From Alphaproteobacteria bacterium (GTDB taxonomy: Bacteria; Pseudomonadota; Alphaproteobacteria; Micavibrionales; Micavibrionaceae): DNA of 64,000 bases. The position numbers were made by a program, and so were the translations under genes. Position 1 is the stretch's first letter. Each line of letters starts with the position of its first letter. Below are positions 10,512 to 61,949 of this stretch, in pieces. The stretch is from assembly GCA_023150415.1 (NCBI GenBank), contig JAKLKY010000004.1, positions 5,647-69,646 of the forward strand, given 5' to 3'. The notes beneath the pieces were generated by a model. It searched no databases. It was not told where the DNA came from and saw only the letters and a list, made by a program, of their open reading frames with translations.

Positions 10512-11490
10512 TACTTGCTAAATGGTCGCGAACACCACTGTTATTATCATGCAAGAAATGCGCTGATTTCTTAAAATTCATCAAGGCCATTATTTTTTCT
10601 TGTAGCTCTTCTTGCTGCTCGTCTGATTGTAGAAGATGCCGTAGGGGATACCCGCGTTCACCGAAAAGACAAAGGTGGAGCGCACCCTTGGCAGACATGC
10701 GCAGACGATTACAGCTTTTACAAAAGTCTTTTGAATAAGGGGCGATTAAACCAATTGTGCCTTTACTGCCTTTATGTGCAAATTCCTGGGCTGGTCCTGC
10801 GCCTTCTTCACGAGGTTTTAAATGCCATCCACGTGCCAGCAATTTTTCCGTGACAGCGGTACCGGGCAAATGATGCTCGCTGAAATAATCCTGATTATCT
10901 CCCGTGCGCATAAGCTCAATAAAGCGCAAGGAAACAGGTTTATCCTGAACAAAAGCGATAAAATCATCAAGCTCGTTATCATTATATCCTTTGAGCAGGA
11001 CAGTGTTAATTTTAACCGATTCAAACCCGGCGTTGTGACAGGCCTCCAGCCCGTCCAATATCTCTTCTAAACGGTCATGTTTTGTGATGGCTTTAAACTT
11101 CTCTGCATTCAGAGAGTCTATGCTGATATTAATCGCTCGAAGACCAGCGTCATAATAGCTCTGCGCCCGTTCGGGCAGCTTATAACCATTGGTCGTAAAG
11201 GCTAATTTTTTAATACCTTGTATTGAAGTAACGCGCTGCGCGATTTGGATAAAATCAGGGCGCACGGTCGGCTCCCCTCCTGTAAGGCGAATTTTCCAAA
11301 CACCAAGCGCGGCGAATGCCTTTACCAGCCTTACAATTTCCTCTTGATTCAGAAAGCTCTCACATCCCGTTTTTTTATATCCATCGGGCAAGCAATAGGA
11401 ACAGCTGAAATTACACACATCCGTTACGGACAGGCGCAAATAAGGAAACCGGCGACCAAAATTATCCGCAAGGTGCGGTTGGTTTATCAT
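10501..11490 (-). CDS. moaA: GTP 3',8-cyclase MoaA (radical SAM)
   Basis: CNFSCSYCLP radical-SAM motif and a C-terminal CKSCNRLRMSAKG cluster. Start set at ATG 11490, preceded by GGAAAGGAG. The ORF-track start 11514 would contain that RBS. Confidence 0.9.
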   Translation of the reverse strand: MINQPHLADNFGRRFPYLRLSVTDVCNFSCSYCLPDGYKKTGCESFLNQEEIVRLVKAFAALGVWKIRLTGGEPTVRPDFIQIAQRVTSIQGIKKLAFTTNGYKLPERAQSYYDAGLRAINISIDSLNAEKFKAITKHDRLEEILDGLEACHNAGFESVKINTVLLKGYNDNELDDFIAFVQDKPVSLRFIELMRTGDNQDYFSEHHLPGTAVTEKLLARGWHLKPREEGAGPAQEFAHKGSKGTIGLIAPYSKDFCKSCNRLRMSAKGALHLCLFGERGYPLRHLLQSDEQQEELQEKIMALMNFKKSAHFLHDNNSGVRDHLASIGG

Positions 11491-11625
11491 ATCAATAGAC
11501 TCCTTTCCAAACACGGGAGATCATGGCGTTTCCACACATAACCCCGGCCAATACGCCATATCCATTTAATAAGGACTTAGGACATAAAGGCTTCAGAGCG
11601 GCCATGCGCAAATGAACATGGCGAA
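11491..11625 (-). ncRNA. Candidate Moco riboswitch in the moaA leader
   Basis: Minus-strand leader contains GCTCTGAAGCC, the helix ATGGCG...GGAAAC...CGCCAT, then CTCCCGTG...GGAAAGGAG overlapping the RBS. These resemble the CUCCGAGCC / CCCG / AAAGGAG blocks of the Moco motif as I recall them. Not folded or scored. Confidence 0.35.
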
Positions 11626-12403: not shown

Positions 12404-13105
12404 ATGAACATTGTAGAAACCATCAAAAAAAGCACCCTGTTTCACAGTGTCGATATGCAGACAATCGAAGCATTGACTAAAGAATGTCATAAAAAAACAT
12501 TTGCCAAAGGGCGTGATATCTTCGCCATGGGTGACAAGGCTGATGCCTTTTTTATTATTCTTGAAGGTTGGGTCAAGCTCTATCGTATCTCCAAGGATGG
12601 TGAAGAAGCGATCATCCATGTCTTTGGCCCCGGCGAGTCTTTTGCTGAAGCGGCTGTTTTTAACGACACAAAAACCTATCCTGTGAATGCCCATGCATTG
12701 GATGAAGTCATTCTTGTCGAAATACCCCGCAGTTTTTTTATCCAGAAAATCGAGGAAGACAGCCAATTCGCTTTGCGTATGCTCGGCGCCATCGCCGCAC
12801 GACAGCATTACCTCGTCCAGCAAATAGAGCAGGTAACAACCCGCACTGCTCCACAGCGGATCGGCGCGTTTTTAATACGTTTTTGCAAGAAAAACAAGCA
12901 GGCCGAAGGCGAATGGGTTGTCCATTTACCTTACGATAAATCAGTGATTTCAACCCGCATGAACATCAAGCCCGAAACTTTTTCCCGCGCCCTGGCAAAA
13001 CTGGAACCTTTTGGCGTTCATGTAGAAAATAAGAAAATTCTGATTACAGACATGGAAGCTCTGGCTGAATTTTGTGACATCTCACCAAACGAAATACCTT
13101 GTTAG
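12404..13105 (+). CDS. Crp/Fnr family regulator, Dnr/NnrR-like (no N-terminal Cys cluster)
   Basis: cNMP-type beta-barrel plus HTH with the ETFSR recognition motif (equivalent to FNR E-xx-SR that reads TTGAT). No Cys-x2-Cys-x5-Cys at the N-terminus. Confidence 0.75.
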   Translation: MNIVETIKKSTLFHSVDMQTIEALTKECHKKTFAKGRDIFAMGDKADAFFIILEGWVKLYRISKDGEEAIIHVFGPGESFAEAAVFNDTKTYPVNAHALDEVILVEIPRSFFIQKIEEDSQFALRMLGAIAARQHYLVQQIEQVTTRTAPQRIGAFLIRFCKKNKQAEGEWVVHLPYDKSVISTRMNIKPETFSRALAKLEPFGVHVENKKILITDMEALAEFCDISPNEIPC

Positions 13106-23450: not shown

Positions 23451-26090
23451 TCAGCATTTTATTTCCGCATTTTTTCTGATGTAGAAATACCAGGTTAAAT
23501 ACAGGCACAAAGCATAGAACCCTGCGAAAACAAGCAAGGCCGCATCCGGCGCTCCCGTCAAAGAAATGGACGTGCCGTAGCTTTTGGGAATAAAGAACGC
23601 GCCGAATGCACCGATAGCGGAGCTAAAGCCGATAACGGCTGCGGATTCTCTTTCTGCCGTCTTGCGGATGTCTTCTTCTGGCTGACCTTTCAGGGCTTTT
23701 TTCCTGTCCTGCCAGAAAATGGATGGGATCATCTGGAAGGTAGAGGCGTTCCCTACGCCTGTCGTAATGAACAGGGCAAGGAACATGCCGAAAAATCCGT
23801 AGAATGCCATGGGATGATCCTTGATGGTCAGGAAGTAATACACCCCGAGCGCACCAACAATCATGGCAACAAAGACCCAAAGCGTAACGCGACCGCCGCC
23901 GAATTTATCGGAAATCCATCCACTCCCCGCACGGGACAGCGCGCCAAGCAGCGGGCCAATAAAAGCAAGCTGAAGAGAGTTCACCTCCGGAAATTGTGAC
24001 TTCGCCAGCAAGGGGAACCCTGCAGAAAATCCAATAAAGGAGCCGAATGTTCCAATATAAAGAACGCACATAATCCAGTTGTGTTTCCGCTGGAAGATAG
24101 CCATCTGGCTGGAAAACGACGCTTTGGCATCCGCAATATCATTCATGAAGAACCATGACAGGATTGCGGAAGCGGCAATAAATGGAATCCATATATAAGC
24201 GGCATTTTGAATCCAAAGGCTTGTGCCATCTGCCAATTGCGGAGCACCGCCGACGGCGCCGAACAGGCCAACCGTAATCACCAGCGGTACAAGGAACTGA
24301 ACGGCACTAACCCCCAGATTACCAAGGCCAGCGTTCAAAGCCAGAGCATTGCCTTTTTCTTTTTTAGGGAAGAAATAGGCAATATTCGCCATACTGGAAG
24401 CGAAGTTCCCGCCTCCAAAACCACAGAGCAAAGCCAAAATCAGAAAAACCGAATAAGGAGTAGAAGGATCCTGCACCGCTATACCGATGCCAAATGCCGG
24501 TATAAGAAGTGAAGCTGTGCTTAAGGATGTCCAGCGACGGCCACCGAAAACAGGCACCATAAAAGCATAGAAAATTCGTAAAGTTGCACCTGATAGTCCG
24601 GGCAGAGCCGTAAGCCAGAATAGCTGTTCTGTCGTAAAATCAAAACCCACCTTGGAAAGGTTCACAACAACGACACTCCATACCATCCACAGCGCAAAGG
24701 CCAAGAATAAAGCCGGAACGGAAAGCCAGAGATTGCGGCGGGCAATCCTTTGTCCTTCTGAGCGCCAGAAGCTGTCCTCTTCGGGCTTCCAGACTTTCAA
24801 AACATGTTTCTTCTCCATCTCGGTGAAAAAGGCAGGTTTTGTCAGCTCTGGGTAACGTGCTCGCTCCATTAGGCGGATAGAGACGTGCATCCACAGGAAT
24901 GCAATTGTAACCAATACGAAAAGCAACATAAAACAGCTTGTCCAGACGTTGAGATAATCATTCATCAGACCAAAGCTCAAAGGAAGAAAGAAGCCGCCAA
25001 GACCGCCAATCAGGCCAACAATACCGGCAACCGATCCAACATCATTCGGGTAATAGACAGGAATATGTTTATAGATTGCGGCCTTGCCCAGAGACATAAA
25101 GAAACCAAGAACAAATACAATCACTGTGAATGGGATAAAACCCCAGCCAAAACTGAATTCTATATTTCCATCAATTCCATGAACGACATAATCGGTTTGC
25201 GGATAAGCCAACAGAAAACAGCAAATAGCACTCACAAGAAACGTCCAATACATGACCGAGCGCGCGCCATATTTATCAGACAAGTACCCGCCTACGGCGC
25301 GGAACAATGAGGCCGCTATAGAAAAAGAAGCAGCCAGCATCCCTGCCGATTTAATATCCAGATCATAAACGCCAACATAATAGCGCGGCAGCCATAGTGC
25401 CAATGCAACGAAGCCGCCAAACACAAAAAAGTAGTAAAGAGAGAAACGCCAGACTTGCAGTTTCTTGAGAGGTTTAAGAGACTCCCACATCGATTTCGGG
25501 GCGGTCTTTGCAGCCCTTTGTTGCTGAATTTGAGGCTCATCCTTGGTAAAGAACCAGAATAGCAGTGCGATGACGACCAATGATAGCGCCCAGACTTGCG
25601 CAACCATATGCCAACCGTAGGAAACCATGACAAAGGGCGCTATAAATTTGGTTACTGCCGCACCGATATTGCCCATGCCATAGACACCCAACGCAGTCCC
25701 CTGACGTTCCTTGCCGTACCATTTCGAGAGATAGGCAATGCCGACCACGAAACTTCCCCCCGCCACGCCCACACCCAATGCCGTCAGCAGTAACATTTCA
25801 TAAGTATCCGCATAAGTCAGACACCATGTGAAAAAGGCTGATGACAGCATAACCGCCATAAAAATCGGGCGCCCCCCATACTGATCGGCCCAGATACCAA
25901 AAAAGAGTCTTACCAAAGAGCCAGTCAGGATCGGCGTCCCGATCAGCAGACTGAATTGCGTGTCTGTCAGCCCCATATCCTGTTGTATCTGGACACCGAT
26001 AATTGAAAATATCGTCCACACGGCAAAACACAGGGTGAATGCCACCGTACTCAAACTAAGGGCTCTGGTTTGATCTGTCTTGGTAATCAT
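23451..26090 (-). CDS. narK: Fused tandem NarK1-NarK2 nitrate/nitrite transporter (two MFS domains)
   Basis: 879 aa with two complete 12-TM MFS halves joined by a hydrophilic linker (...ELTKPAFFTEMEKKHVLKVWKPEEDSFW...), upstream of narG. Confidence 0.9.
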   Translation of the reverse strand: MITKTDQTRALSLSTVAFTLCFAVWTIFSIIGVQIQQDMGLTDTQFSLLIGTPILTGSLVRLFFGIWADQYGGRPIFMAVMLSSAFFTWCLTYADTYEMLLLTALGVGVAGGSFVVGIAYLSKWYGKERQGTALGVYGMGNIGAAVTKFIAPFVMVSYGWHMVAQVWALSLVVIALLFWFFTKDEPQIQQQRAAKTAPKSMWESLKPLKKLQVWRFSLYYFFVFGGFVALALWLPRYYVGVYDLDIKSAGMLAASFSIAASLFRAVGGYLSDKYGARSVMYWTFLVSAICCFLLAYPQTDYVVHGIDGNIEFSFGWGFIPFTVIVFVLGFFMSLGKAAIYKHIPVYYPNDVGSVAGIVGLIGGLGGFFLPLSFGLMNDYLNVWTSCFMLLFVLVTIAFLWMHVSIRLMERARYPELTKPAFFTEMEKKHVLKVWKPEEDSFWRSEGQRIARRNLWLSVPALFLAFALWMVWSVVVVNLSKVGFDFTTEQLFWLTALPGLSGATLRIFYAFMVPVFGGRRWTSLSTASLLIPAFGIGIAVQDPSTPYSVFLILALLCGFGGGNFASSMANIAYFFPKKEKGNALALNAGLGNLGVSAVQFLVPLVITVGLFGAVGGAPQLADGTSLWIQNAAYIWIPFIAASAILSWFFMNDIADAKASFSSQMAIFQRKHNWIMCVLYIGTFGSFIGFSAGFPLLAKSQFPEVNSLQLAFIGPLLGALSRAGSGWISDKFGGGRVTLWVFVAMIVGALGVYYFLTIKDHPMAFYGFFGMFLALFITTGVGNASTFQMIPSIFWQDRKKALKGQPEEDIRKTAERESAAVIGFSSAIGAFGAFFIPKSYGTSISLTGAPDAALLVFAGFYALCLYLTWYFYIRKNAEIKC

Positions 26091-26209: not shown

Positions 26210-26245
26210 GATGCTGTCAACAAAGAACAATGATTGGTAATAAAG

Positions 26246-26986
26246 ATGCAGTTGCCTGCAAATTTTAATGAACAAAAAAAGCCGCAGCTTTTTGAGGGAT
26301 TATCCGAAAACAGTCTTCAGACGTTACTTCAACGTTCTGTCATGCACGATTATGACAGTGGCAAAGTTCTTGTGCAGCAGGGCGATAGTCCGGAATGTAT
26401 TTTTCTTGTGCTGGACGGATCGTTAAAAACAACCCGCATAAACGAAGATGGCGGCGAAGCCATAATACGCATGCTTGAAGCTGGCGACACATGTATGGAA
26501 GCCGTTCTTTTTATGGGGATTCCTTCGCCGATCAACGTGCAAGCCATGAGCGCCGCCAAAATTCTTAAAATTCCGGATTCAGTTGTCAAAAAACATGTTC
26601 TTGAGGATCCTGCTTTTGCCGTTAATCTTTTGCGTATTGTCTCGCGCCATTATAAAAATGCTATGCATCAGATTGAAGCTATGAATATTAAATCACCGCT
26701 GCAGCGCGTGGGGTACTATTTTCTGCTCAAGCATATTGAACAAGGGCACGAAAATCTGGACTTTAAACTTCCCTTTAAAAAACAGGTCGTAGCGAATTAT
26801 TTAGGCATGACGCCAGAAACCTTCTCCAGAACACTCAAGCAAATGAAAGATATCGGCATCAAAGTGGAAGAAGATACAATCAGAATGCGGGATTCATTTG
26901 CGCTCTGCCATTTCTGTGATTCTGATACCGCTTCTTTATGCTCAAGGCACGATCAGCCCGAATGTGAAAAATGCCCGCTGCACTAA
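26246..26986 (+). CDS. Crp/Fnr family regulator with a C-terminal Cys cluster
   Basis: cNMP-type barrel, HTH with ETFSR, and tail FALCHFCDSDTASLCSRHDQPECEKCPLH (C-x2-C-x7-C-x8-C-x2-C). ATG 26246 preferred over TTG 26234. Confidence 0.8.
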   Translation: MQLPANFNEQKKPQLFEGLSENSLQTLLQRSVMHDYDSGKVLVQQGDSPECIFLVLDGSLKTTRINEDGGEAIIRMLEAGDTCMEAVLFMGIPSPINVQAMSAAKILKIPDSVVKKHVLEDPAFAVNLLRIVSRHYKNAMHQIEAMNIKSPLQRVGYYFLLKHIEQGHENLDFKLPFKKQVVANYLGMTPETFSRTLKQMKDIGIKVEEDTIRMRDSFALCHFCDSDTASLCSRHDQPECEKCPLH

Positions 26987-28476: not shown

Positions 28477-28490
28477 TTGATCTGGATCAA
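28477..28490. promoter_or_regulatory. FNR-type box TTGATCTGGATCAA
   Basis: Perfect palindrome in the moeA / ubiT divergent gap, centred 41.5 bp from ubiT ATG 28525. Confidence 0.7.
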
Positions 28491-28524
28491 TCCCCAAAGC
28501 ATACCCAGCGCTTATTGTCTGGTT

Positions 28525-29070
28525 ATGATGACAGCGCAGGCCGATTACAGATCAGAAACTGAAAAGCAGGAGTACAGGTATTTACCAAGGCTACTGCGCC
28601 TTATACTTGCGCCTGTGCCACTTTTTGCCATCCAACCTGTTTTACACAAAATCGTTCATCACATAACACAGAAACGACCGGAGTTATTTGACCGTATCGG
28701 GCCACATAAAGACAAGCTTTTCTTGATTGATCCGGTAAATTTGCCCTTTGCCTTTGCATTAAGAGCTAATCCGGACAATCTTTCCTTTTGTGCATACCGG
28801 CGGCGCAATCTGCCTCAGGTCGAAGCCCGCATTGCAGGAACGTTCTTAACATTGCTGGATATGGTGGATGGACAGCTGGATGGGGATGCCCTGTTTTTCA
28901 CACGCGAGCTTGTGGTGGAAGGTGATACCGAGGCCGTTGTCTGCCTGCGCAATGCAATTGATGACGTAGAGGGAAGTATCGCCGAGGACACTGCGAATTT
29001 ATTCGGATTTGCCGGACGAAATGCTTTGAAGATTTTAAGAAAGGCGAGGAATCATGGTCGAAAACACTGA
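28525..29070 (+). CDS. ubiT: SCP2-domain ubiquinone-pathway accessory protein UbiT (YhbT-like)
   Basis: SCP2-like ...ARIAGTFLTLLDMVDGQLDGDALFFTRELVVEGDTEAVVCLRNAID, directly upstream of ubiU/ubiV. ORF-track start 28477 lies inside the FNR box, so ATG 28525 is used. Confidence 0.6.
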   Translation: MMTAQADYRSETEKQEYRYLPRLLRLILAPVPLFAIQPVLHKIVHHITQKRPELFDRIGPHKDKLFLIDPVNLPFAFALRANPDNLSFCAYRRRNLPQVEARIAGTFLTLLDMVDGQLDGDALFFTRELVVEGDTEAVVCLRNAIDDVEGSIAEDTANLFGFAGRNALKILRKARNHGRKH

Positions 29071-30067
29071 GCCTGTGGGGGAACTTGTCTGTCCCGCAGG
29101 AACGCCAGCATCCCTGCGCACTGCCGTGGATGCTGGCGCGGATGCTGTCTATTGCGGGTTTCAGAATGCAACCAACGCCCGCAATTTCCCGGGACTGAAC
29201 TTTACACTTCCAGAGATGGAAAAAGCTGTCGTCTATGCCCATGAACGCGGGACAAAAGTGTTGCTGGCGGCCAATACATTTCCGCCTGCCGGCAAGATAC
29301 AACTCTGGAAGGACGCTGTTGATTCAGCTGTTCGCATGGGAATTGATGCCATTATCGTGGCTGATATCGGCGTTGCCGGTTACATCAAGAAAAATCATCC
29401 TGATCAGCGCATCCACTTATCCGTTCAGGCCGGTGCGCCTTCTGTTGAAGCCATTAAATATTATTGCGAGGAATTTGGCGTCAGGCGTGTTGTCTTGCCG
29501 CGTATATTGACGATCCCTGAAATCAAATCACTGAAAAAAGAGATCCCTTGCGAAATTGAATGTTTTATTTTCGGCAATCACGGCCTTATGGCGGAAGGAC
29601 GGTGCAGCCTGACAAATTATGTTACCGGATTATCCACCAATATGGACGGGGTGTGTTCCCCCGCCGGCGATGTGAAATATGAGGAAGATGCACAGCGCAA
29701 TCTGACGACCAAACTCGGCGCCTTCACCATTGATTGCTTTTCCTGCACGCAAAACCCCGGATATCCAACCATTTGCAAAGGGCGCTACCGCGCACCGCAT
29801 AGGCCGGATGGTTATTATGCCTTTGAAGAACCGATCAGCCTTAACCTGGCGCGCTTGCTGCCGGAACTTATCAAGGCGGGCGTTCATGCTTTCAAGATTG
29901 AGGGACGCCAACGCTCCCGCGCCTATGTGCGTGAGGTCGTATCATCATGGCGCAAGGCCATAGATGATGTGATGGCGGGACAGGACGTGGAGCTGGCGCA
30001 TCTATTGTCCCTGACCGAAGGTCATAAACAAACGCAGGGCGCTTATGAAACAAAGAGATGGAGATAA
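29054..30067 (+). CDS. ubiU: U32-family O2-independent ubiquinone hydroxylase subunit UbiU (YhbU-like)
   Basis: ELVCPAGTPASLRTAVDAGADAVYCGFQNATNARNFPGLNFT... aligns closely by eye with E. coli YhbU (ELLCPAGNLPALKAAIENGADAVYIGLKDDTNARHFAGLNFT). Cys motif EGRCSLTNY...GVCSP. Confidence 0.8.
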   Translation: MVENTEPVGELVCPAGTPASLRTAVDAGADAVYCGFQNATNARNFPGLNFTLPEMEKAVVYAHERGTKVLLAANTFPPAGKIQLWKDAVDSAVRMGIDAIIVADIGVAGYIKKNHPDQRIHLSVQAGAPSVEAIKYYCEEFGVRRVVLPRILTIPEIKSLKKEIPCEIECFIFGNHGLMAEGRCSLTNYVTGLSTNMDGVCSPAGDVKYEEDAQRNLTTKLGAFTIDCFSCTQNPGYPTICKGRYRAPHRPDGYYAFEEPISLNLARLLPELIKAGVHAFKIEGRQRSRAYVREVVSSWRKAIDDVMAGQDVELAHLLSLTEGHKQTQGAYETKRWR

Positions 30068-30071
30068 GCCA

Positions 30072-30974
30072 ATGATGGCGCAATTGACAATGGGACCAAT
30101 TTTATTCCACTGGCCTGCTGAGAAAAAACGTGACTTTTATTTTCGTATTGCCGATGAAGCGCCGGTTGAAACGGTCTATCTGGGCGAGGTTATCTGCTCC
30201 AAGCGGACACCGTTTTTTGAACAGCATTATAGCGAGGTTGCCGAGCGCCTTATGGCGGGCGGGAAAAAAGTCGTATTTTGCTCTCTGGCTGAAATCATGA
30301 TCCCCCGTGAACGCAAAATGACCGAAGGATTATGCGAACTTGAAGATTTTGAGGTTGAAGCCAATGATGCCGCCGCACTCTATCATTTGCGCGGGAAGCC
30401 ACACCGGATTGGCCAGTATTTTAATGTCTATAACGAAGACGTGATGGAACATCTGGCCTCTGGTGGGGCAACCCACTTTACTCTGCCTGCGGAATTACCG
30501 GCGGAGTCTATATCCGCTCTGGGACAAAAAGCCGATGATATCGGGGTCGGTCTTGAGGTGCAGGTTTTCGGACGCGTTGGCCTTGCGCTTTCGGCACGGT
30601 GTTATCATGCGCGTGCTCATGGCCGGGTTAAAGATAATTGCCAGTTTGTCTGTGAAGAAGATCCGGACGGCATGATATTAAAAACGCTGGAAGAAAAAGA
30701 TTTTTTATGCGTCAACGGTGTACAGACATTATCTTACACTTACCTGAACCTTGTTCATGAATTGCATGAAATGGCAGATATGGGCGTAAAGTCCTTCCGC
30801 CTTTCCCCGCACACGCATGATATGAAGCAGGTTGCTTGCCTGTTTAGAAACGTGCTTGATAAAAAGATCGATGCCGGTGAAGCTGAAGCACAATTAAAAG
30901 AACTAATACCAAACGTGCCGTTTTCAAATGGCTTTTATCACAAAACTCTCGGCTATTCCTGGAAGGCGGCGTGA
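30072..30974 (+). CDS. ubiV: U32-family UbiV (YhbV-like)
   Basis: MMAQLTMGPILFHWPAEKKRDFY resembles the YhbV N-terminus (MKYSLGPVLWYWPKETLEEFY). Cys motif SARCYHARAHGRVKDNCQFVC. GGAG RBS lies before ATG 30072. Confidence 0.75.
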   Translation: MMAQLTMGPILFHWPAEKKRDFYFRIADEAPVETVYLGEVICSKRTPFFEQHYSEVAERLMAGGKKVVFCSLAEIMIPRERKMTEGLCELEDFEVEANDAAALYHLRGKPHRIGQYFNVYNEDVMEHLASGGATHFTLPAELPAESISALGQKADDIGVGLEVQVFGRVGLALSARCYHARAHGRVKDNCQFVCEEDPDGMILKTLEEKDFLCVNGVQTLSYTYLNLVHELHEMADMGVKSFRLSPHTHDMKQVACLFRNVLDKKIDAGEAEAQLKELIPNVPFSNGFYHKTLGYSWKAA

Positions 30975-32014
30975 TTATACCGTCCGGAAAACAATAAAAA
31001 ATCATCATTCTCTTCTCCAGTTTCAATGTAATGTGCAATACATCGCGCCATGATCGGGGAAAGCAAATACCCATGCCGAAACAGCCCGTTGCTGCGGATA
31101 TATCTTTTTTCTCCATCAATGATGATGCGCGGCAAATTATCCTGATAGGCGGCTCTGATACCCGACGACATATCCAGTACCTTCGATTCACCAAAACTGG
31201 GGTGCAGGCTGTAACACGCGCTCATCAGTTCCATGGCTGAACGCAACATCACCAAACCATCGTCTTCATCTGCATTTTCTATCGCTGTCGCGCCGACGGC
31301 AAAGACGTGATCCGGCCTTGGGACGATATAAAGCGGATAACGCGGATGCATTAACCGTACGGGCCGTTTCAGAGAAAATTCAAAATTCCGAATTAAAAGA
31401 ATTTCGCCCTTAATGCCGCGTAAATCCTGGTCGAATTGCGGCGCATAGCCACGGCAATCGATCACCCAGTCATAATCCAGCGCCAAATCTTCCGGCTGCA
31501 CCTCCTGCTTTATCATTTGTCCGTTTAAAGATATGAATTTTTTAAAAAGAGCTTCTAACGCCAGCAACGGCACAAGATGCGCTTCTTCCGGAATATAAAG
31601 TCCTTTGGTAAAGCGACTGCGTAAATCCGGTTCTAGCGCACGGATTTCTTTTTCATTGACCCATTGCCACGCCCCACTCACAGAGTTTAGATGTTGCACA
31701 AACCTATCTAGATAAACTTCATCTGCCAGATGCGCCACAAACAGGCTGCCTTCTTTGCTAAACACAAAATCTGCGCCGCCATCTAACATAGCCTTCCACA
31801 TTGCAATGCCTTTCACCCCCGCCTTCACAAAACTCAGCGGCAAAGTGTCGATTTCGCTGTATGGCGCCATCATGCCGCCTGCAATTGTGCTGGGATTGAC
31901 GGGCGGAAAATCCTGTTTCTCGAAAATCGTAACCTGATAGCCTTTTTCGGCATTCATACACGCCGCCAGTAATCCTGATATCCCTGCGCCTATAATAGCA
32001 ATCTTTTTACTCAT
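30953..32014 (-). CDS. FAD-dependent glycine/amine oxidase, ThiO paralogue
   Basis: KIAIIGAGISG dinucleotide fold. Blocks shared with the host thiO at 60710: HPRYPLYIVPRPDHVFAVGAT, LHPSF, YQDNLPRI and FRHGYLLSPIMA. Start at MSKK (32014), with AAGGAAAA upstream. Confidence 0.75.
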   Translation of the reverse strand: MSKKIAIIGAGISGLLAACMNAEKGYQVTIFEKQDFPPVNPSTIAGGMMAPYSEIDTLPLSFVKAGVKGIAMWKAMLDGGADFVFSKEGSLFVAHLADEVYLDRFVQHLNSVSGAWQWVNEKEIRALEPDLRSRFTKGLYIPEEAHLVPLLALEALFKKFISLNGQMIKQEVQPEDLALDYDWVIDCRGYAPQFDQDLRGIKGEILLIRNFEFSLKRPVRLMHPRYPLYIVPRPDHVFAVGATAIENADEDDGLVMLRSAMELMSACYSLHPSFGESKVLDMSSGIRAAYQDNLPRIIIDGEKRYIRSNGLFRHGYLLSPIMARCIAHYIETGEENDDFLLFSGRYNHAAFQE

Positions 32015-32031
32015 TATTTTTTCCTTATCGT

Positions 32032-32730
32032 TTATGCTTTTGTGATGCAGCCATATAAAATATGCCACGTGACATGCTCAAAATTCTGGGAATCAAAAGC
32101 TGCACAAGCCTTTTTGATTTGTGGGAGAGTAAGAGGCGCATAGTTTTCTCTACCGCAGGACGCTCCCATATTTTTTAAACTGGAAAGAAAAGCCCAACTA
32201 TCTCTGCAACTTTTTTTGATCTTTTCTTCTCTGTATATCCCCTCGGAATAGCTAAAATTGGGCATGCCGGAAGGAAGCCCCAATTGATCAAGGGTACTCC
32301 GCCATTCTTTAAAGCAATCTGGCCCGGGCAGCGAAAAATAAAATGTGCCGTCTGGCTTTAGCATGCTTTTCAGATTGTCTAACCCTTCCTCCAGATCTTC
32401 AAACCACTGACAAACCATACTGGCGGTAATCAGATCATATGTTTCTCCGGTTTGTTCTTTTTCTGCGTCCAGAATGAAAAAGCGTGTCGACATCCCCGAA
32501 AATCTACTTTTTGTCTGCTCAAGCATACGGGGACTCACATCCGTAATATGAAGCTGATGCCCAGCATATTTCCTGGCTAACTGTGCGGTCAAAAAACCTG
32601 TGCCGCACCCTGTTTCCAAAATGGCGGCATTTTTAAGACAAGGAAGATCGCAGGCCAGACTATCGGCTACATGGGCTTGCACATCACCATACTGATCATA
32701 CAGATGCGCCTGAGTATCAAAATTGCGCAT
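32032..32730 (-). CDS. SAM-dependent methyltransferase, BioC-like
   Basis: FDTQAHLYDQYGDVQ...ILETGCGTGFLT...DLITASMVCQWFEDL...LKPDGTFYFSLPG follows the BioC pattern. Start could be 32763 or 32730. Confidence 0.65.
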   Translation of the reverse strand: MRNFDTQAHLYDQYGDVQAHVADSLACDLPCLKNAAILETGCGTGFLTAQLARKYAGHQLHITDVSPRMLEQTKSRFSGMSTRFFILDAEKEQTGETYDLITASMVCQWFEDLEEGLDNLKSMLKPDGTFYFSLPGPDCFKEWRSTLDQLGLPSGMPNFSYSEGIYREEKIKKSCRDSWAFLSSLKNMGASCGRENYAPLTLPQIKKACAAFDSQNFEHVTWHILYGCITKA

Positions 32731-32734
32731 TACT

Positions 32735-33376
32735 TTATCTTTCCAACTTAAGGCCACTGACAAACTCCTTTATTGTATTGGCGCACCATTCAGGATGCGA
32801 CCACGGCATAATGTGCCCGCCGCCCATAAGCGTTTTAATCGGAAAACCCGACCACTCCTTTTTCATGATGTCCTGATCTAGTATCGGATCGGCATCGCCA
32901 CACAAACAAAGAACAGGCTTTGCATACGCACCAAGCTCTTTTGCGGCGCTGATTTTACTGATCCAGACCATGCCTTCTTGCAGTCTTTGCAAGTTCAGGT
33001 GAGCTTTATCTTTCGTGATTCCGCATTTCTTCCAGAAATCCCCCATTTGCGGAATAGGATCACGCTCCAGCCTTAATTTCATGGCCTGCAAGGAACGCTC
33101 GTCTGAAAAACTCTTGAAACGATAAAATCCATTGATAGCGATCAGCACGTCAATATCTGCGACTTTGTTCTTTAACGCCCACAAGGTTCCTAAAGAGTGC
33201 GTGATATAGACACGCTTGCTGTCGCTCGGTGCTTTGTGATTTTCGATTCTTTGATCGTGTCCAATAAAGCCAAGATTTAAAAAATGAGATTGTTTTTTTG
33301 GAAAATGCGGGCGCAATCTTTCCCAGAAATCTGGATCAGTTCCCCAGCCATGCACAAATACATAATGAACGCTCAA
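32735..33376 (-). CDS. Alpha/beta hydrolase, BioH-like
   Basis: VFVHGWGTDPDFW, nucleophile elbow THSLGT, and C-terminal GGGHIMPWSHPE (His of triad). First gene of the operon with the BioC-like and ThiO-like genes. Confidence 0.55.
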   Translation of the reverse strand: MSVHYVFVHGWGTDPDFWERLRPHFPKKQSHFLNLGFIGHDQRIENHKAPSDSKRVYITHSLGTLWALKNKVADIDVLIAINGFYRFKSFSDERSLQAMKLRLERDPIPQMGDFWKKCGITKDKAHLNLQRLQEGMVWISKISAAKELGAYAKPVLCLCGDADPILDQDIMKKEWSGFPIKTLMGGGHIMPWSHPEWCANTIKEFVSGLKLER

Positions 33377-33436
33377 GCAGTCTTCCTCTCTGTTTTCAGG
33401 AAAACTCTATTATCAGAAAAAAATATTCTGATCGAC

Positions 33437-33450
33437 TTGATCTAGATCAA
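33437..33450. promoter_or_regulatory. FNR-type box TTGATCTAGATCAA
   Basis: Perfect palindrome in the divergent gap, 67.5 bp from the BioH-like ATG (33376) and 147.5 bp from nrdD ATG. Confidence 0.7.
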
Positions 33451-33489: not shown

Positions 33490-33505
33490 ACACAATATGT
33501 AGTGT
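33490..33505. promoter_or_regulatory. Candidate NrdR box ACACAATATGTAGTGT
   Basis: Matches the 16-bp NrdR palindrome consensus (acaCwAtATaTwGtgt) at all but one position, 86 bp upstream of nrdD. Part of the longer palindrome AACACACAATATGTAGTGTGTT. No second box seen. Confidence 0.5.
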
Positions 33506-33590: not shown

Positions 33591-35633
33591 ATGTCCGACG
33601 CCTCTGCTGCCAGATCCAAAACCACCGATTCTGTAGAGAAAAAATCAGTGATCGCTTTTCCGGCGACTCACCCCGCCAACCCTGAAACAGATCAGATCGT
33701 TACGCTTTTTGGCGGAACATCTGTGGATTGCTCCGAGGCGATCAGCGAGTATATTTCCGGATCTGACTGGAGAATCAAGGCCAATGCCAATACCGGGTAC
33801 TCCAATGCCGGCCTGATCAATAATGTCGCCGGAAAAGTGATCGCCAATTTCTGGCTGGATGAAGTTTACTCCCCCGAAGAGGGACAGGCGCACCGCAATG
33901 GCGATGTTCACATCCACGATCTGGACTGCCTGACCGGATATTGCGCGGGCTGGTCACTTCGTGCCCTGCTCAATGACGGATTTAATGGCGTTGGCGGACG
34001 TGTTTCCTCTCGCCCCCCACGTCATTTCCGTGAGGCTTTAGGGCAAATGTCCAATTTCCTTGGCATCCTGCAATCCGAATGGGCGGGCGCGCAGGCGTTC
34101 AGCTCCTTTGATACCTATCTTGCGCCATACGTCTTTTATGATCAACTGAGCTTTAAAGAAGTTAAAAAGGCGATTCGTCAGTTTGTTTATAATCTGAACG
34201 TGCCCGCACGCTGGGGACAATCACCCTTCACCAATATCACGCTGGATATTACAGTGCCCGAAGATCTGCAGAATCAGTTCCCAACATATAGCAACCTGCA
34301 TCTCTTTAAAGGGATCGAGAACGATGAATTGCTGTTAAAGGCACAGCAGCGTGACATGGGTTTGCGCAGTCTTGAAGACACCACATTTAAACATTTTGCC
34401 CCTGAAATGGAGATGATCAATATCGCTTATTACGAGGTGATGACCGAAGGCGATTCAACTGGGCAGCCTTTTACCTTCCCGATTCCAACCGTCAATATCA
34501 CCGAGGATTTTGACTGGGACAGCAAAGTGGCAGCGGCTATTTTTGAAAATACGGCAAAAGTCGGTTCCTCTTATTTCCAAAATTTCGTTGGTTCCCAATG
34601 GATGAAAAATGAAAAAGGGGAGCGCGTACGCAATCCGGAAGCCTATTCCCCCGGCGCGGTACGTTCCATGTGCTGCCGCCTGCAACTGGATTTGCGCGAG
34701 CTACTTAAGCGCGGGAACGGCCTATTTGGCTCAGCAGAGATGACCGGCTCTATCGGCGTTGTGACTCTGAACATGGCGCGCCTGGGCTACCGCTTCAAAG
34801 GCGACTTCAAGGGCTTGATGGCGGAAGTTGACCGCCTGATGGATATAGGCAAATCCACATTGGAGAAAAAACGGGTCTTCGCACAGAAAATGTATGATCG
34901 CGGGCTCTACCCCTATACATCCCGCTACCTGCCGTTTTTCCGCAATCACTTCTCCACCATCGGTGTCAACGGTATGAATGAGATGATCCGTAATTTCACC
35001 GATGACGAGCATGACATTACAGACGAGCAAGGCATTCAGATGAGTATTGATATTCTGGATCATATGCGCACAAAACTCCTTGGTTATCAGGAAGAAACTG
35101 GCAATCTCTATAATCTGGAGGCTACGCCGGCGGAAGGAACGACATACCGTTTTGCCAAGGAAGACAAGAAGCGCTTCCCCGATATCCTGCAGGCAGGCTT
35201 TGGTGAAAACATATACTACACCAATTCATCCCAAATTCCTGCCGATCACACAGAAGACCCGTTTGAAGCTCTGGAGCTGCAAAACCGTCTGCAGTGCAAA
35301 TATACGGGCGGTACGGTGTTGCATCTTTACATGAATGAGAAGCTGAGCAGCGCCGAAGCCTGTAAGGGGTTCGTCAAAAAAGTGATTGGCAATTACCAGC
35401 TTCCCTATATCACCGTGACGCCTGTTTTCTCGGTTTGTGATACGCATGGCTATCTCAACGGAGAGCAGCCAGAATGCCCGACCTGCGGTGAAAACACCAA
35501 AGTGTGGACACGTGTCATGGGCTATTTCCGTCCCGTGGACAGCTTTAACAAAGGCAAACAGGGCGAACACCGTGAACGCAAGCACTTCAAGGAAGACTGG
35601 GTTGATACCGGTAGTCTTTTCACTGGCGTGTAA
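33591..35633 (+). CDS. nrdD: Anaerobic ribonucleoside-triphosphate reductase (class III)
   Basis: C-terminal Zn site CDTHGYLNGEQPECPTCG and glycyl-radical motif TRVMGYFRPV. 680 aa. Confidence 0.93.
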   Translation: MSDASAARSKTTDSVEKKSVIAFPATHPANPETDQIVTLFGGTSVDCSEAISEYISGSDWRIKANANTGYSNAGLINNVAGKVIANFWLDEVYSPEEGQAHRNGDVHIHDLDCLTGYCAGWSLRALLNDGFNGVGGRVSSRPPRHFREALGQMSNFLGILQSEWAGAQAFSSFDTYLAPYVFYDQLSFKEVKKAIRQFVYNLNVPARWGQSPFTNITLDITVPEDLQNQFPTYSNLHLFKGIENDELLLKAQQRDMGLRSLEDTTFKHFAPEMEMINIAYYEVMTEGDSTGQPFTFPIPTVNITEDFDWDSKVAAAIFENTAKVGSSYFQNFVGSQWMKNEKGERVRNPEAYSPGAVRSMCCRLQLDLRELLKRGNGLFGSAEMTGSIGVVTLNMARLGYRFKGDFKGLMAEVDRLMDIGKSTLEKKRVFAQKMYDRGLYPYTSRYLPFFRNHFSTIGVNGMNEMIRNFTDDEHDITDEQGIQMSIDILDHMRTKLLGYQEETGNLYNLEATPAEGTTYRFAKEDKKRFPDILQAGFGENIYYTNSSQIPADHTEDPFEALELQNRLQCKYTGGTVLHLYMNEKLSSAEACKGFVKKVIGNYQLPYITVTPVFSVCDTHGYLNGEQPECPTCGENTKVWTRVMGYFRPVDSFNKGKQGEHRERKHFKEDWVDTGSLFTGV

Positions 35634-35635
35634 TC

Positions 35636-36382
35636 ATGGCTCTTGCGCTTGCCAATAAACCGGAAGCCAGGCCCCCTGTCAAAAAACAGGGGGCGCTTCC
35701 CATATACTCTGTCACCCCCTTCACGATGCTCGATTTTCCGGGACAGACGGCCTGTATTGTCTGGTTTTCCGGATGCAACATGCGCTGTCCTTACTGTCAC
35801 AATCCTCAAATCGTCAAAGGCAAGGGGCGAGGCGATGTGGGTCAGGTTTTCGATTTCCTGAAAAAACGCGCAGGACTTCTGGATGGAGTCGTTCTCTCCG
35901 GCGGTGAGGCCTCGGCCTATCCCGGGTTGCCCGATTTTATCAAACAGGTAAAAAAACTTGGTTATGCCGTCAAACTTGATACGAACGGTCTAAGACCCGA
36001 TATCATTGACGATTTCTTGCGTCAGGGATTTTTGAATTACATTGCGCTGGATTACAAAGCCCCGCCCCATAAATTCAAGAAAGTCACGGGCGTTGATAAA
36101 TACAACGAATTCACCAAAACGCTTGATCTTTTATGCGCGCAAAAAGCCGTGCCATTTGAGGTGCGCACGACTGTTCACACAAATCTGATGGATGAAGATG
36201 ATGTCAATGCCATTATCCATGATCTTGAAAATCGTGGTTACCAAGGCCGGCACGCCATACAGAATTTCACCCATAGCGATGATCGCCCGACATTGGGCTT
36301 TATGCGTGAACAAGAGCGCGTCTTGAATACGGACGCTCTCTATGCTCCTCCAAATTTCACCTTGGAATTTCGTAACTTTTAA
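35636..36382 (+). CDS. nrdG: Anaerobic RNR activating protein (radical SAM)
   Basis: FSGCNMRCPYCHNP motif, immediately after nrdD. Confidence 0.88.
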   Translation: MALALANKPEARPPVKKQGALPIYSVTPFTMLDFPGQTACIVWFSGCNMRCPYCHNPQIVKGKGRGDVGQVFDFLKKRAGLLDGVVLSGGEASAYPGLPDFIKQVKKLGYAVKLDTNGLRPDIIDDFLRQGFLNYIALDYKAPPHKFKKVTGVDKYNEFTKTLDLLCAQKAVPFEVRTTVHTNLMDEDDVNAIIHDLENRGYQGRHAIQNFTHSDDRPTLGFMREQERVLNTDALYAPPNFTLEFRNF

Positions 36383-57910: not shown

Positions 57911-59353
57911 TTACTTTACCTCCGTTAAGTATCCTGTCCGACCAGAACAAGGATAGCCATTTTTGTTTTTATGCTTATTAAGCTTGGAATCGTTTTTGCT
58001 GCGTGTGAATTTTTTCTGACACATAGGGCATTGAAAAACGTATTTAGGCCCGAAAGAAGAAGATCCTGCTCTTCTGACAGGCCGGGTTGCTCTTCGGATG
58101 GGTGTACCGAATGGTTTTATTTTTCTGGATTCGGCAACGGTCGGAGCCAGAACGACAGGTCCGCCCGAGGTCAGTTCAACCTCATAACGCGGCGTAAAGG
58201 CCCTGTTCGTCACGCGCGCCCCACGAATACGGTCCGTACGGTAGCTTCTATGTTCCCCATTCTCAACTTTAATGCCGTGCAAAATCACATCACCATTTTG
58301 TGTGGATCTCAGGGAATAAGGTTCAATGATAGGAGATGAATGACGGCCTTTATCATCAACATAGTCCAGTTCAACACACAATCTGTTGGCCGCCGCGAAG
58401 CGGATTATTTCAAGATGCTGTGCGCCATGCCTTACGGTCAAGCTGCGGCCAGGGCGCTCGCGGATAATCGTTTCGCCGGGCTTTAAAGGGTACGCTGTCG
58501 GAATGACCGGCTCGTGTCCATGTTCAATCCACTCAAAAATCGCGGGTAACTCGTTCCAGTAACTTTCAACCGGCGGAAGGTTCGGCAACTGGTGTCCCAG
58601 CATACTCGCCCACGAGCCTTCCAGGCTTTCTTTGTGTGATTCAAGATCGGCCAAAACCGGAACGGAAATCCCTTTAAATTCACATTTCTGCCGCAGAATA
58701 TCGAGAAGAACGCCTGCCGCCGGTTTGATGGTTGAGTTTCTGAACAGATTGACCACATCGTATAAATCGCGGGGGCGGGTTCTTTCCGCCAATGCCCTGA
58801 ATTTTTCGCCGAACACTTCTTCATAGACGTAGCAAAGCGCCTGAATACCGCCCTCCGGCTCATCCGAATAAGGGTGGTAAACGGGCTGCAGCGCAGGTGA
58901 CAACACAAGTTTTTCATCGGCTGTCAGATCAAGTTTGATTTTTGGATAGCCGCCTGAGGTCGGCGAAACAGGGCCGCGATAAGAAACTTTCCCCTGGCAT
59001 GATATTTTTCCGCGCGGATTTGTGTAGATATCAAAGGACAGGCCGTCTTTCGGAACCTCGATCCCCGTCTGTTCATATACCCATTCGGCTATGGTTTCGA
59101 ATGTGCCGCGCAGGAAATCTTTGTCAATCTGGCTTTCATCGATCAGCGTGAAATCGAGATCCTCGGAAAACCGGTATGTTTCGAAATAGCATTTTTTAAG
59201 ACAGGTTCCGCCCTTGAACACCCAGTTTTTATTTATTGCCGGATGATTATAGATACCGGCCAGCAGCCACCCCAAGACGTAATCTTTCTCGATAACGTCC
59301 GGGCGCAGGCTTACGGTGGCGGCCATGGCCAGAATTTCACGGCGGTCGATCAT
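57911..59353 (-). CDS. abiEii: AbiEii/DUF1814 nucleotidyltransferase toxin fused to a WYL-like domain and a C-terminal zinc ribbon
   Basis: IEKDYVLGWLL, FKGGTCLKK, FSEDLDF (NTase) in aa 1-300. aa ~305-392 has IIEPYSLRSTQNGDVILHGIKVENGEHRSYRTDRIRGARVTNRAFTPRY (WYL-type). aa 441-470 has CPMC...H...C. Confidence 0.85.
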   Translation of the reverse strand: MIDRREILAMAATVSLRPDVIEKDYVLGWLLAGIYNHPAINKNWVFKGGTCLKKCYFETYRFSEDLDFTLIDESQIDKDFLRGTFETIAEWVYEQTGIEVPKDGLSFDIYTNPRGKISCQGKVSYRGPVSPTSGGYPKIKLDLTADEKLVLSPALQPVYHPYSDEPEGGIQALCYVYEEVFGEKFRALAERTRPRDLYDVVNLFRNSTIKPAAGVLLDILRQKCEFKGISVPVLADLESHKESLEGSWASMLGHQLPNLPPVESYWNELPAIFEWIEHGHEPVIPTAYPLKPGETIIRERPGRSLTVRHGAQHLEIIRFAAANRLCVELDYVDDKGRHSSPIIEPYSLRSTQNGDVILHGIKVENGEHRSYRTDRIRGARVTNRAFTPRYEVELTSGGPVVLAPTVAESRKIKPFGTPIRRATRPVRRAGSSSFGPKYVFQCPMCQKKFTRSKNDSKLNKHKNKNGYPCSGRTGYLTEVK

Positions 59354-59365
59354 GGGTTCCTTCCG

Positions 59366-60154: not shown

Positions 60155-60213
60155 TGCTATACTATTGCTCCGTTTTTTCACGAAAAACGTGAATTTATAG
60201 ATTAATAATATAG
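60151..60213. repeat. 63-bp abiE promoter/operator unit, proximal copy (contains TTCACG-N5-CGTGAA)
   Basis: Near-identical to 60237-60299 at an 86-bp offset. This copy ends in the abiEi ATG. Confidence 0.6.
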
Positions 60214-60236
60214 TAAAAACCTTACGATTGCACGAA

Positions 60237-60299
60237 CAATAGCTATACTATCGATCCATTTTTTCACGAAAAATGTGAATTTATGGATCAGTAATATAG
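60237..60299. repeat. 63-bp abiE promoter/operator unit, distal copy (contains TTCACG-N5-TGTGAA)
   Basis: Same unit as 60151-60213. ATT replaces the ATG at the equivalent position. Confidence 0.6.
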
Positions 60300-60441: not shown

Positions 60442-60496
60442 AGGAATTTGCTTCCGGATTGCTTCCAAATCCGATGCAGGGTATCGATCTGCATCG
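60442..60496. repeat. Arm-type repeat, right copy (partner at 984-1028)
   Basis: AGGAATTTGCTTCCGGATTGCTTCCAAATCCGATGCAGGGTATCGATCTGCATCG, 43 bp inside attR. Confidence 0.5.
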
Positions 60497-60539
60497 CATC
60501 GAAACACCAATTAAGTCATTGAAATATAAAGAAAAAAAT

Positions 60540-60616
<77 letters not shown>

Positions 60617-61798: not shown

Positions 61799-61949
61799 TA
61801 TCGCGGCGTTACTGGCGCAAGAAGGCTATGCCGGCATGACCGTGGCCGTGGCGCGCAACGGTACGTTTGTGCCGAAAGCAAAACAAAGCCAGACGGCTGT
61901 ACAAAATGGCGATACGATTGATATCGTCGCGCCGATGCAGGGGGGATAA
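61746..61949 (+). CDS. thiS: Thiamine sulfur-carrier protein ThiS
   Basis: 67 aa, MITITINGH...DIVAPMQGG (C-terminal GG). Start at the internal ATG of ORF 61686-61949. Confidence 0.8.
   Translation: MITITINGHSKTFPAALDIAALLAQEGYAGMTVAVARNGTFVPKAKQSQTAVQNGDTIDIVAPMQGG

Follow-up and report, generated by a model that had tools for sequence, protein, structure and literature searches.

Facultative anaerobes possess oxygen-independent replacements such as ubiTUV, nrdDG and hemN, and in Escherichia coli nrdDG is a classic target of the regulator FNR. To our knowledge, neither the biotin proteins BioC and BioH nor the glycine oxidase ThiO are known as anaerobic substitutes of this kind, and the question of how bacteria that possess only ThiO make thiamine during anaerobic respiration has, as far as we know, rarely been asked. 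Glycine oxidase is described as dependent on oxygen and not usable under anaerobiosis, and ThiO is regarded as the oxygen-requiring alternative to ThiH (PMC9046217). The window considered here, by which we mean the whole stretch of 64,000 nucleotides from contig JAKLKY010000004.1 (assembly GCA_023150415.1) of a bacterium of the Micavibrionaceae, contains three packed open reading frames on the minus strand between ubiV and nrdD, which encode a hydrolase, a methyltransferase and an oxidase dependent on flavin adenine dinucleotide (FAD), the last of these a paralogue of ThiO. We read this trio, tentatively and with slightly less than even confidence, as a vitamin-precursor operon that is induced at low oxygen and that supplies an extra ThiO isozyme.

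An earlier note on this DNA had already placed three packed minus-strand genes between ubiTUV and nrdDG, and this arrangement holds with small corrections to the coordinates. The first gene (32735-33376, minus strand) encodes a short BioH-type serine esterase of 213 amino acids (PF12697), a predicted methyl ester esterase acting on pimeloyl-acyl carrier protein (pimeloyl-ACP); it starts with TTG, and the sequence GAGGAAG lies six bases 5' of that codon. The second gene encodes a BioC-type methyltransferase (TIGR02072) dependent on S-adenosylmethionine, a predicted malonyl-ACP O-methyltransferase. Its extent is most likely 32032-32757 (minus strand), since the resulting 241 amino acids are the length of the identical database entry P0121; with this extent its beginning shares 23 nt with the 3' end of the hydrolase gene. 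The third gene (30953-32014, minus strand) encodes an FAD-dependent glycine oxidase paralogue (PF01266, TIGR02352) that belongs to a biotin-gene-linked clade of ThiO proteins described below. Its start is most likely the ATG at 32014, which lies 17 nt past the methyltransferase stop, and not the GTG at 32068; the ATG gives a protein of 353 amino acids, as in nearly all close homologues. At its 3' end the oxidase gene overlaps the convergent ubiV by 22 nt.

In order to identify the first two proteins, it is useful to consider their relatives as well as their own scores. On the BioC model TIGR02072, the methyltransferase obtains 138.5 bits over its full length, below the cutoff of 184.95, and the next unrelated family obtains 54.8 bits; BioC is the top family for 10/10 cassette methyltransferases. 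A profile search seeded with ten cassette methyltransferases found relatives, at 33-37% identity, some of which belong to complete bio operons while others form fusions with BioD. These relatives score 163-170 bits on the same model and so also remain under the cutoff. Thus, the sub-cutoff score of the methyltransferase is uninformative. Loci L092 and L093 have the order bioB<->bioF-hydrolase-methyltransferase, with bioA-bioD alongside, and locus L094 has the order bioA<->bioF-hydrolase-methyltransferase::BioD, where the methyltransferase forms a fusion with BioD. The BioA, BioB, BioF and BioD proteins encoded there share 29-59% identity with their E. coli counterparts. The BioC::BioD fusions include the protein of L094 (5212-6624, 470 amino acids, following bioF and a 221-amino-acid esterase) and the protein P0224 (465 amino acids), and the entries P0219 and P0224 are both fusions of this kind. 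A separate candidate identity, RquA or UbiE/UbiG, was suggested by the neighbouring ubiTUV and was rejected: UbiG and UbiE obtain 35-36 bits, as against 138.5 bits for BioC.

Aligned from end to end, the hydrolase shares about 32% identity with the 203-amino-acid hydrolase encoded between bioF and bioC in L092 (E 3e-28) and L093. Its catalytic triad (Ser61, Asp163, His188) is invariant in 13 sequences, as is the motif H60-S61-x-G63. The Pfam scan returns generic alpha/beta-hydrolase families only, PF12697 matching 13/13 of the esterase relatives. The BioH model TIGR01738 is the sole family common to all 13, at 21-46 bits against a cutoff of 206.95. A search of the Protein Data Bank (PDB) with the esterase sequence gave no match, and a structure predicted from the single sequence was unusable, with a predicted local distance difference test score (pLDDT) of 41. 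As to genomic context, the esterase gene always lies directly upstream of bioC, and in L092-L094 it lies between bioF and bioC. The esterase is therefore predicted by its context to be BioH-like, although it falls outside the BioH equivalog. Because their relatives occur within complete operons for biotin synthesis or in fusions with BioD, we conclude that the first two genes, judged by this orthology, are a short, divergent BioH-type esterase and BioC.

These identifications bear on two claims of the earlier note. The first was that the trio might form a new methyl-ester-protected pathway; no such pathway is needed, since the first two genes belong to biotin synthesis and have the esterase and BioC of complete biotin operons as their orthologues. 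The second was that the trio is a candidate undescribed module of a hydrolase, a methyltransferase and an amine oxidase. The combination is real, conserved and apparently undescribed, but its first two members are ordinary biotin genes.

The third gene was said to be a clear paralogue of the thiO at 60710, and the comparison agrees: the oxidase and the host thiO product (60710-61798) are 45% identical over 355 residues (E 4e-93), and the shared sequence blocks quoted earlier are present. The host gene forms part of a chromosomal thiO-thiS-thiG operon (60710-62741, plus strand; thiO 60710-61798, thiS about 61746-61949, thiG 61959-62741), which lies outside the island that carries the trio. The trio oxidase matches PF01266 over residues 22-346 (E 1.3e-42) and has an N-terminal motif of the GxGxxG type, IIGAGISG. 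On the ThiO model TIGR02352 it scores 221.9 bits against a cutoff of 250.8, with the next family at 43.6. The ThiO of the host operon, at 236.9 bits, and that of locus L020, at 226 bits, also fall below this cutoff, and so the cutoff does not discriminate in this lineage. The best solved structures found for the oxidase in the PDB are all glycine oxidases, with which the Arg of its GIR motif and the Arg and His of its FRHG motif align. In our alignment of the clade with the host ThiO (alignment A1), 66 columns are invariant between the two, and the Arg of GxR, the Arg and His of FRHG and the Tyr of PLY are invariant throughout. Residues peculiar to the clade are few and occupy about seven positions (Q34, P38, A239 in place of Met, G253, S283, Y305 and S343), and in a neighbour-joining (NJ) tree the oxidase clade appears without a long branch.

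We now turn to the regulatory sequence. A perfect FNR-type box, TTGATCTAGATCAA, occupies 33437-33450; it is a TTGAT-N4-ATCAA palindrome and is common to the divergent promoter regions of the cassette and nrdDG. The distance of 67.5 bp reported in the earlier note is correct and runs from the centre of the box to the start codon of the hydrolase gene; the corresponding distance to the start codon of nrdD is 147.5 bp. The window contains 8 perfect boxes of this form, as compared with 0.11 expected by chance. They begin at 7068, 11667, 15629, 23424, 26196, 28477, 33437 and 39597, and all of them lie on the island and outside annotated gene bodies. Two of these boxes overlap nominal gene starts. 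The TTG annotated as the start codon of ubiT (28477), and likewise that of ytfE (39597), is itself the beginning of an FNR box, and the true starts of both genes must therefore lie downstream.

On the hydrolase side of the box at 33437, the sequence TGATAAT contains a putative -10 hexamer, GATAAT (33409-33414, minus strand), for the cassette promoter. When the intergenic sequences are aligned, an element resembling TGATAAT/GTAATAAT, some 22 nt away from the box, is seen to be kept even in loci L025 and L027, whose proteins are 44-56% identical to those of the window. The putative -10 hexamer would set the transcription start near 33402 and would center the FNR box at about -41.5, and an FNR box near -41.5 is the class II geometry in E. 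coli. The spacer contains no consensus -35/-10 promoter. This arrangement is consistent with a single FNR site that would serve two divergent promoters. On the other side of the box, between it and nrdD, lies a palindrome resembling the NrdR box, ACACAATATGTAGTGT (33490-33505, plus strand). It is the sole match with one mismatch in the window, and it is conserved in the intergenic alignment of related loci.

Other forms of control were sought as well. There is no thiamine pyrophosphate (TPP) riboswitch ahead of the cassette or the host thiO in the window, nor in loci L002, L004, L009 and L020; the riboswitch search returned only a tRNA and a molybdenum-cofactor riboswitch. The alphaproteobacterial motif of the BioR operator, TTATMKATAA, has no meaningful match upstream of 26 cassettes. 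A candidate reader of the FNR boxes is encoded on the island itself: a regulator of the FNR/FtrB family (26234-26986, plus strand) whose recognition helix reads ETFSR and whose Cys cluster, CHFC...C...C..C, is C-terminal. Such a cluster is C-terminal in the Fnr of Bacillus and N-terminal in the FNR of E. coli. A second regulator of the FNR/FtrB family lies at 12404-13105, also on the island.

Taken together, these features suggest the following mechanism. BioC would methylate malonyl-ACP, fatty-acid synthesis would elongate the methyl ester, and the esterase would then remove the methyl group so as to yield pimeloyl-ACP for biotin, a route that would need no oxygen. The ThiO-type flavoenzyme, whose substrate is probably glycine, would oxidise it to the imine (dehydroglycine), and this product would presumably be delivered to ThiG for the thiazole of thiamine. 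The operon would be read from an FNR-dependent promoter of class II type, with a single FNR site in common with the divergent promoter of nrdDG, so that the cassette would be transcribed from that site. When oxygen becomes scarce, or when the cell switches to nitrate respiration, it would thereby gain an extra route to pimelate and an extra ThiO isozyme on top of the chromosomal thiO-thiS-thiG. The flavin could be reoxidised at low oxygen in one of three ways: through a larger amount of enzyme, through a higher affinity for oxygen, or through another acceptor.

We also surveyed at least 154 distinct ThiO-like loci, taken from scans of genomes and metagenomes and from contigs looked up individually, and we scored their neighbours by tblastn. 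We define the clade of the trio oxidase as those loci whose oxidase is at least 52% identical to the oxidase of the window. All context counts given here are among the loci listed in this survey. The result is a sharp partition. The hydrolase and the methyltransferase lie upstream in 19/19 clade loci with enough upstream DNA, and thiS or thiG lies downstream in 0/22. Outside the clade, thiS or thiG lies downstream in 102 of 104 ThiO loci, and neither the hydrolase nor the methyltransferase is found in any. One of the two exceptions, locus L009, has a true bioD directly downstream of its oxidase gene (TIGR00347, 108.9 bits; cutoff 83.3). The tree places this oxidase with the clade: a clade including L009 appears in 81/100 NJ bootstraps, and one excluding it in 1/100. 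The entire oxidase clade is thus tied to biotin genes and never to thiS or thiG, which is the strongest clue to emerge and one that the earlier note does not contain.

The trio block remains intact across at least four contexts (nrdDG<>trio><ubiVUT; queCDEF-trio; EamA-trio-MoeZ; CorC-like-phosphatase-trio), down to protein identities of 36-60%. At least four assemblies (that of the window, PRO23, JBQDYD01 and CAZBNG01) contain both a clade member and the canonical thiOSG, in each case at island-type loci; in PRO23 the two occur together on one contig of 1.2 Mb, just as the window holds both on one contig. Further assemblies in which the cassette occurs are GCA_964493095.1, GCA_041156765.1, GCA_002747015.1, JAHDXS01, JAWSVM01, JALSJP01, JAGYOK01 and CAADGI01, and L009 comes from JAERIN01. 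Our literature search found no description of a thiO/bioC/bioH cluster, and nothing relevant on vitamin synthesis in Micavibrio or on substitutes for BioA. In particular, we found no description of a ThiO clade permanently joined to bioH-bioC, or of such a clade as part of an FNR regulon that a mobile anaerobic island carries.

Several observations weigh against our interpretation of the trio as a low-oxygen operon with an extra ThiO isozyme, and we gather them here. Among the loci surveyed, the box occurs upstream of the hydrolase gene only where nrdD is divergent from it. There the box is perfect in seven lineages, and in L007 it reads TTGACCCAGGTCAA. Cassette loci of other contexts have no perfect FNR box within the 5-21 kb scanned, and neither the oxidase-less loci nor the bio-operon loci have an FNR box. 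Since the cassettes outside island-type loci are without the box, the link to low oxygen is specific to one lineage group, and the FNR site may serve nrdDG alone. The earlier description of the trio as an anaerobic cofactor module is therefore only partly upheld: the wiring in this genome is of FNR type, but the module is not intrinsically anaerobic.

The tight packing of the trio offers little further help, for unrelated genes overlap by 4 nt in these compact genomes (as in L002), and packing is thus weak evidence of a shared function. The partners of the clade are biotin genes only, including bioD in L009, and the absence of thiS and thiG fits a role in biotin synthesis at least as well as one in thiamine synthesis. 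Esterase-BioC pairs occur without the oxidase in L095 and L096, and one of these two nests near the cassette clade in a tree of concatenated hydrolase and methyltransferase sequences. Finally, glycine oxidase is described as oxygen-dependent (PMC9046217), and its induction by FNR would therefore be odd unless the enzyme works under micro-oxic conditions or uses another acceptor. The sequence of the oxidase contains nothing that decides between a micro-oxic role and another acceptor.

The likeliest alternative, although we regard it as improbable in itself, is that these oxidases now work in the biotin pathway, the whole clade having been recruited there. For example, it might supply the amino group at C7, in the step from 7-keto-8-aminopelargonic acid (KAPA) to 7,8-diaminopelargonic acid (DAPA), by a glycine-dependent amino transfer: a glycine adduct would be oxidised on its glycine side to give the amine and glyoxylate. 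In this scheme the oxidase would take the place of BioA or support it, and its flavin would not need oxygen in order to cycle. The clean switch of context described above (19/19 for esterase-BioC and 0/22 for thiS/thiG) speaks for this idea, as does the L009 member, which lies inside the clade and directly upstream of bioD. So do the at least four assemblies in which a clade member accompanies a canonical thiO-thiS-thiG. There is also a match of the oxidase to PDB 6j38 (E 4.4e-12), entitled 'FAD-dependent glycine oxydase'. We take PDB 6J38/6J39 to be CmiS2. CmiS2 oxidises N-carboxymethyl-aminononanoate and thereby gives a glycine-derived amine to a fatty-acid chain. If this identification is right, then glycine-dependent amino transfer has a chemical precedent. 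Moreover, substitutes for BioA exist, such as BioU.

Several points speak against this idea. The active site of the oxidase is essentially that of ThiO, with few changes specific to the clade. Esterase-BioC pairs exist both without any oxidase (L095, L096) and with an ordinary bioA (L092-L094). A single ancestral insertion of thiO between bioC and bioD could give both of the biotin linkages, and the genomes that hold both copies are all of the island type, so the duplication may simply be imported cargo. For the full statement that the ThiO clade linked to bioH-bioC is not a thiamine enzyme at all but a biotin flavoenzyme, for example one that replaces BioA in a glycine-dependent, oxygen-independent conversion of KAPA to DAPA, our confidence is slightly lower still.

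A second alternative, which was the main idea of the earlier note, retains the thiamine role and changes the enzyme. The paralogue could be a glycine dehydrogenase that works strictly without oxygen, hands its electrons to quinone or to another carrier, and stands in for the host ThiO under anaerobic conditions. ThiO without an acceptor cannot turn over (PMC9046217), and the island brings oxygen-independent replacements together, under FNR boxes, as a coherent kit; the earlier note had argued in the same manner that the neighbouring genes replace oxygen-dependent steps, which is true of ubiTUV and nrdDG and also of hemN. Furthermore, the host has a thiO of the oxygen type with no thiH in the window, and homologues of island genes (nrdDG, ubiV, moeZ and the PAS and chemoreceptor genes) recur near the cassette in other arrangements. 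On the other hand, we identified no membrane segment or electron-transfer partner gene for the oxidase, and no signature that sets the protein apart from oxidases. The FNR boxes are missing from the cassettes outside island-type loci, and the fixed linkage to esterase-BioC is left unexplained. It also counts against this alternative that an ordinary thiO seems to suffice for many denitrifiers. We consider a dehydrogenase of this kind improbable.

It is also conceivable that the cluster is devoid of functional and regulatory significance, the box serving nrdDG only and the trio being an inherited block of unrelated housekeeping genes that hitch-hiked onto the island. Such a passenger arrangement would explain why the box appears only where nrdD adjoins, and it would fit the NrdR-like operator on the nrdD side, the status of nrdDG as a classic FNR target in E. 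coli, and the overlaps among unrelated genes in the compact genomes of this group. Yet the block is intact in at least four contexts even where its proteins are only 36-60% identical, and diverged lineages retain, on the cassette side of the box and at the spacing of class II, the -10-like element, with no alternative promoter seen in the spacer. Given these facts, we regard a mere passenger as quite improbable, more so than the dehydrogenase.

Least of all do we believe in a split tRNA modification system like MnmC, whose oxidase would strip a glycine-derived carboxymethyl group and whose methyltransferase would add a methyl, or in a wholly new methyl-ester-protected pathway: a weak secondary match of the oxidase to the MnmC oxidase domain (TIGR03197, E 2.8e-11), the pairing of oxidase and methyltransferase that recalls MnmC, and the adenylyltransferase-rhodanese gene (MoeZ type) found 3' of the cassette in one lineage group point toward MnmC, but ThiO outscores MnmC by about 180 bits on the oxidase, the methyltransferase is BioC-like over its full length with relatives in biotin operons and BioD fusions, and the hydrolase is an orthologue of the biotin-operon esterase, so that we reject the MnmC-like reading on the family scores and on the biotin-operon orthology of the other two genes.

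The trio is carried by an integrative island of 59.7 kb (811-60584), bounded by direct repeats at 811-857 and 60538-60584. A tRNA-Met gene lies at 60540-60616, and its 3' half is repeated at 811-857 (47 nt, 87% identity). There is a second pair of repeats (984-1011 and 60442-60469), and a tyrosine recombinase/integrase is encoded at 1078-2283. The GC content is 45.7% in the trio and 48.6% in the island, as against 59.6% in the chromosomal flank with thiOSG, and at third codon positions it is 0.42-0.50 in the trio, compared with 0.66-0.70 in thiO and thiG. The claim that the oxidase gene has a cargo-type, AT-rich composition is therefore well founded in this contrast, and the attachment-site (att) repeats, the tRNA-Met and the integrase support the status as cargo independently.

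Among the cargo, the immediate neighbours of the trio are ubiT-ubiU-ubiV (28477-30974, plus strand), which is convergent to it and encodes oxygen-independent ubiquinone hydroxylation, and nrdD-nrdG (33591-36382, plus strand), which is divergent from it and encodes the anaerobic ribonucleotide reductase and its activase. In the profile scan UbiT obtains 66.7 bits (cutoff 46.9), UbiU 447 (440), UbiV 364 (275), NrdD 1014 and NrdG 201.8. The molybdenum-cofactor genes comprise a MoeZ-type adenylyltransferase-rhodanese, mobA, moaE, moaC/B, moaA and moeA. Further cargo consists of a PAS protein, a chemoreceptor, the two FNR/FtrB-family regulators, hemN, narGHJI, a narK-narK fusion, nsrR, hmp, ribB, ytfE, copper efflux genes, a primase-like gene and an AbiE pair. 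The island thus appears to equip a Micavibrio-like alphaproteobacterium for nitrate respiration, together with a kit for oxygen-independent synthesis of cofactors and deoxynucleoside triphosphates (dNTPs).

Among the matches listed, the closest relatives are genomes assembled from metagenomes, which bear the label Micavibrio or Alphaproteobacteria. At least eight lineages have the same gene order in the core, x421-(ytfE-ribB-hmp-nsrR)-nrdG-nrdD<>trio><ubiVUT-moeA-fnr-narK-narG, at protein identities of 44%-100%. The tRNA-Met upstream of thiOSG is kept in relatives (L051, 9473-9549; L046, 3878-3954), and in PRO23 an integrase homologue lies beside tRNA-Met (L066, 6321-7694), about 35 kb from the cassette of that genome. 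The same attachment site at tRNA-Met may have been used repeatedly.

A number of further observations concern the island and its relatives. In L013 (10001-16900) the cassette is followed directly by the x158-primase-integrase backbone of the island instead of ubiVUT-nar; the cassette and nrdDG thus travel even where nitrate reductase does not. In several loci whose context is otherwise unrelated (L002, 13045-14866; L004, 9034-10107; L023, 11775-14459; L099, 4034-4740; L020, 1 and 19857), the cassette has homologues of other island genes nearby, namely PAS and chemoreceptor genes, MoeZ, a 349-amino-acid protein, nrdDG, ubiV and copA. In L095 (4344-9747) an esterase-BioC pair without the oxidase directly follows nrdHIEF, the aerobic class Ib reductase, which mirrors the linkage of the cassette to nrdDG. 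Within the window, the molybdenum-cofactor riboswitch (RF01055, 49.2 bits; 11484-11612, minus strand) stands ahead of moaA with the FNR box at 11667 just upstream, and this suggests a double control of cofactor synthesis. The narK-narK gene (23451-26090, minus strand) encodes an 879-amino-acid fusion of two NarK-type nitrate/nitrite transporters. At the end of the island next to the tRNA lies the AbiEii/AbiEi-like pair (57911-60299), where a 61-nt repeat occurs twice (60153-60213 and 60239-60299). The two copies overlap the beginning of the antitoxin gene, reach further upstream and could be operator repeats.

The significance of this locus is threefold. First, an FNR-linked ThiO paralogue and an ordinary thiOSG operon in one genome form a pair of isozymes in which oxygen affinity, electron acceptor and physiological role can be compared. 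Second, the strict linkage of the clade to biotin genes is a clean signal of comparative genomics. If it is functional, it would mean a new enzyme for biotin synthesis, and if the biotin reading is true, that enzyme would be a third solution to the step from KAPA to DAPA, after BioA and BioU. Third, a complete anaerobic kit (nitrate respiration, molybdenum cofactor, oxygen-independent steps in heme, ubiquinone and dNTP synthesis, and nitric oxide defence) can be moved as one integrative element among relatives of Micavibrio, which has been described as an aerobic predator.

It remains to compare the cassette with known systems. Each of its parts is already of a known kind: the oxidase is ThiO-like, the esterase is BioH-like, and BioC, FNR sites and islands integrated at a tRNA are all familiar. 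With CmiS2-type enzymes (PDB 6J38/6J39, which we take to be CmiS2) it shares a ThiO-like flavoenzyme that stands beside a hydrolase-type partner and that would act on a substrate derived from fatty acids. The similarity is distant, however; the hydrolase of the trio is an orthologue of the biotin-operon esterase and not a homologue of the glycine-adding thioesterase, and there is no polyketide context. The regulatory region resembles FNR class II promoters, and the control of E. coli nrdDG by FNR and NrdR, in its perfect site, its -10-like spacing and the NrdR-like operator before nrdD. It differs from the class II promoters of E. coli in that a single site appears to serve two divergent promoters, and in that the Cys cluster of the candidate regulator is C-terminal and not N-terminal. 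With the oxygen-independent replacements of facultative anaerobes (ubiTUV, nrdDG and hemN), the cassette has in common the island, the regulon motif and the synteny in at least eight lineages, whereas ThiO is regarded as the oxygen-requiring alternative to ThiH (PMC9046217).

The oxidase has the fold and the FAD motif of ThiO of the Bacillus subtilis type (TIGR02352; PDB 1NG3/1RYI), which is also its best family and supplies its best structures, and the substrate-binding Arg residues are conserved. Unlike that enzyme, the trio oxidase belongs to a clade of its own (81/100 bootstraps) that is never found beside thiS/thiG but follows esterase-BioC, or precedes bioD in one lineage, and in this genome it stands behind an FNR site. 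Finally, the trio resembles the BioC-BioH pathway of E. coli, and the bioF-bioH-bioC type of operon, in its full-length BioC-like methyltransferase, in the Ser-Asp-His esterase encoded immediately upstream of it, and in the orthologues of both that lie inside complete bio operons. It differs in that its esterase is of a short form (about 205-215 amino acids) and obtains only 21-46 bits on the BioH model, and in that the pair is detached from bioF, bioA, bioD and bioB and joined instead to a ThiO-like gene.

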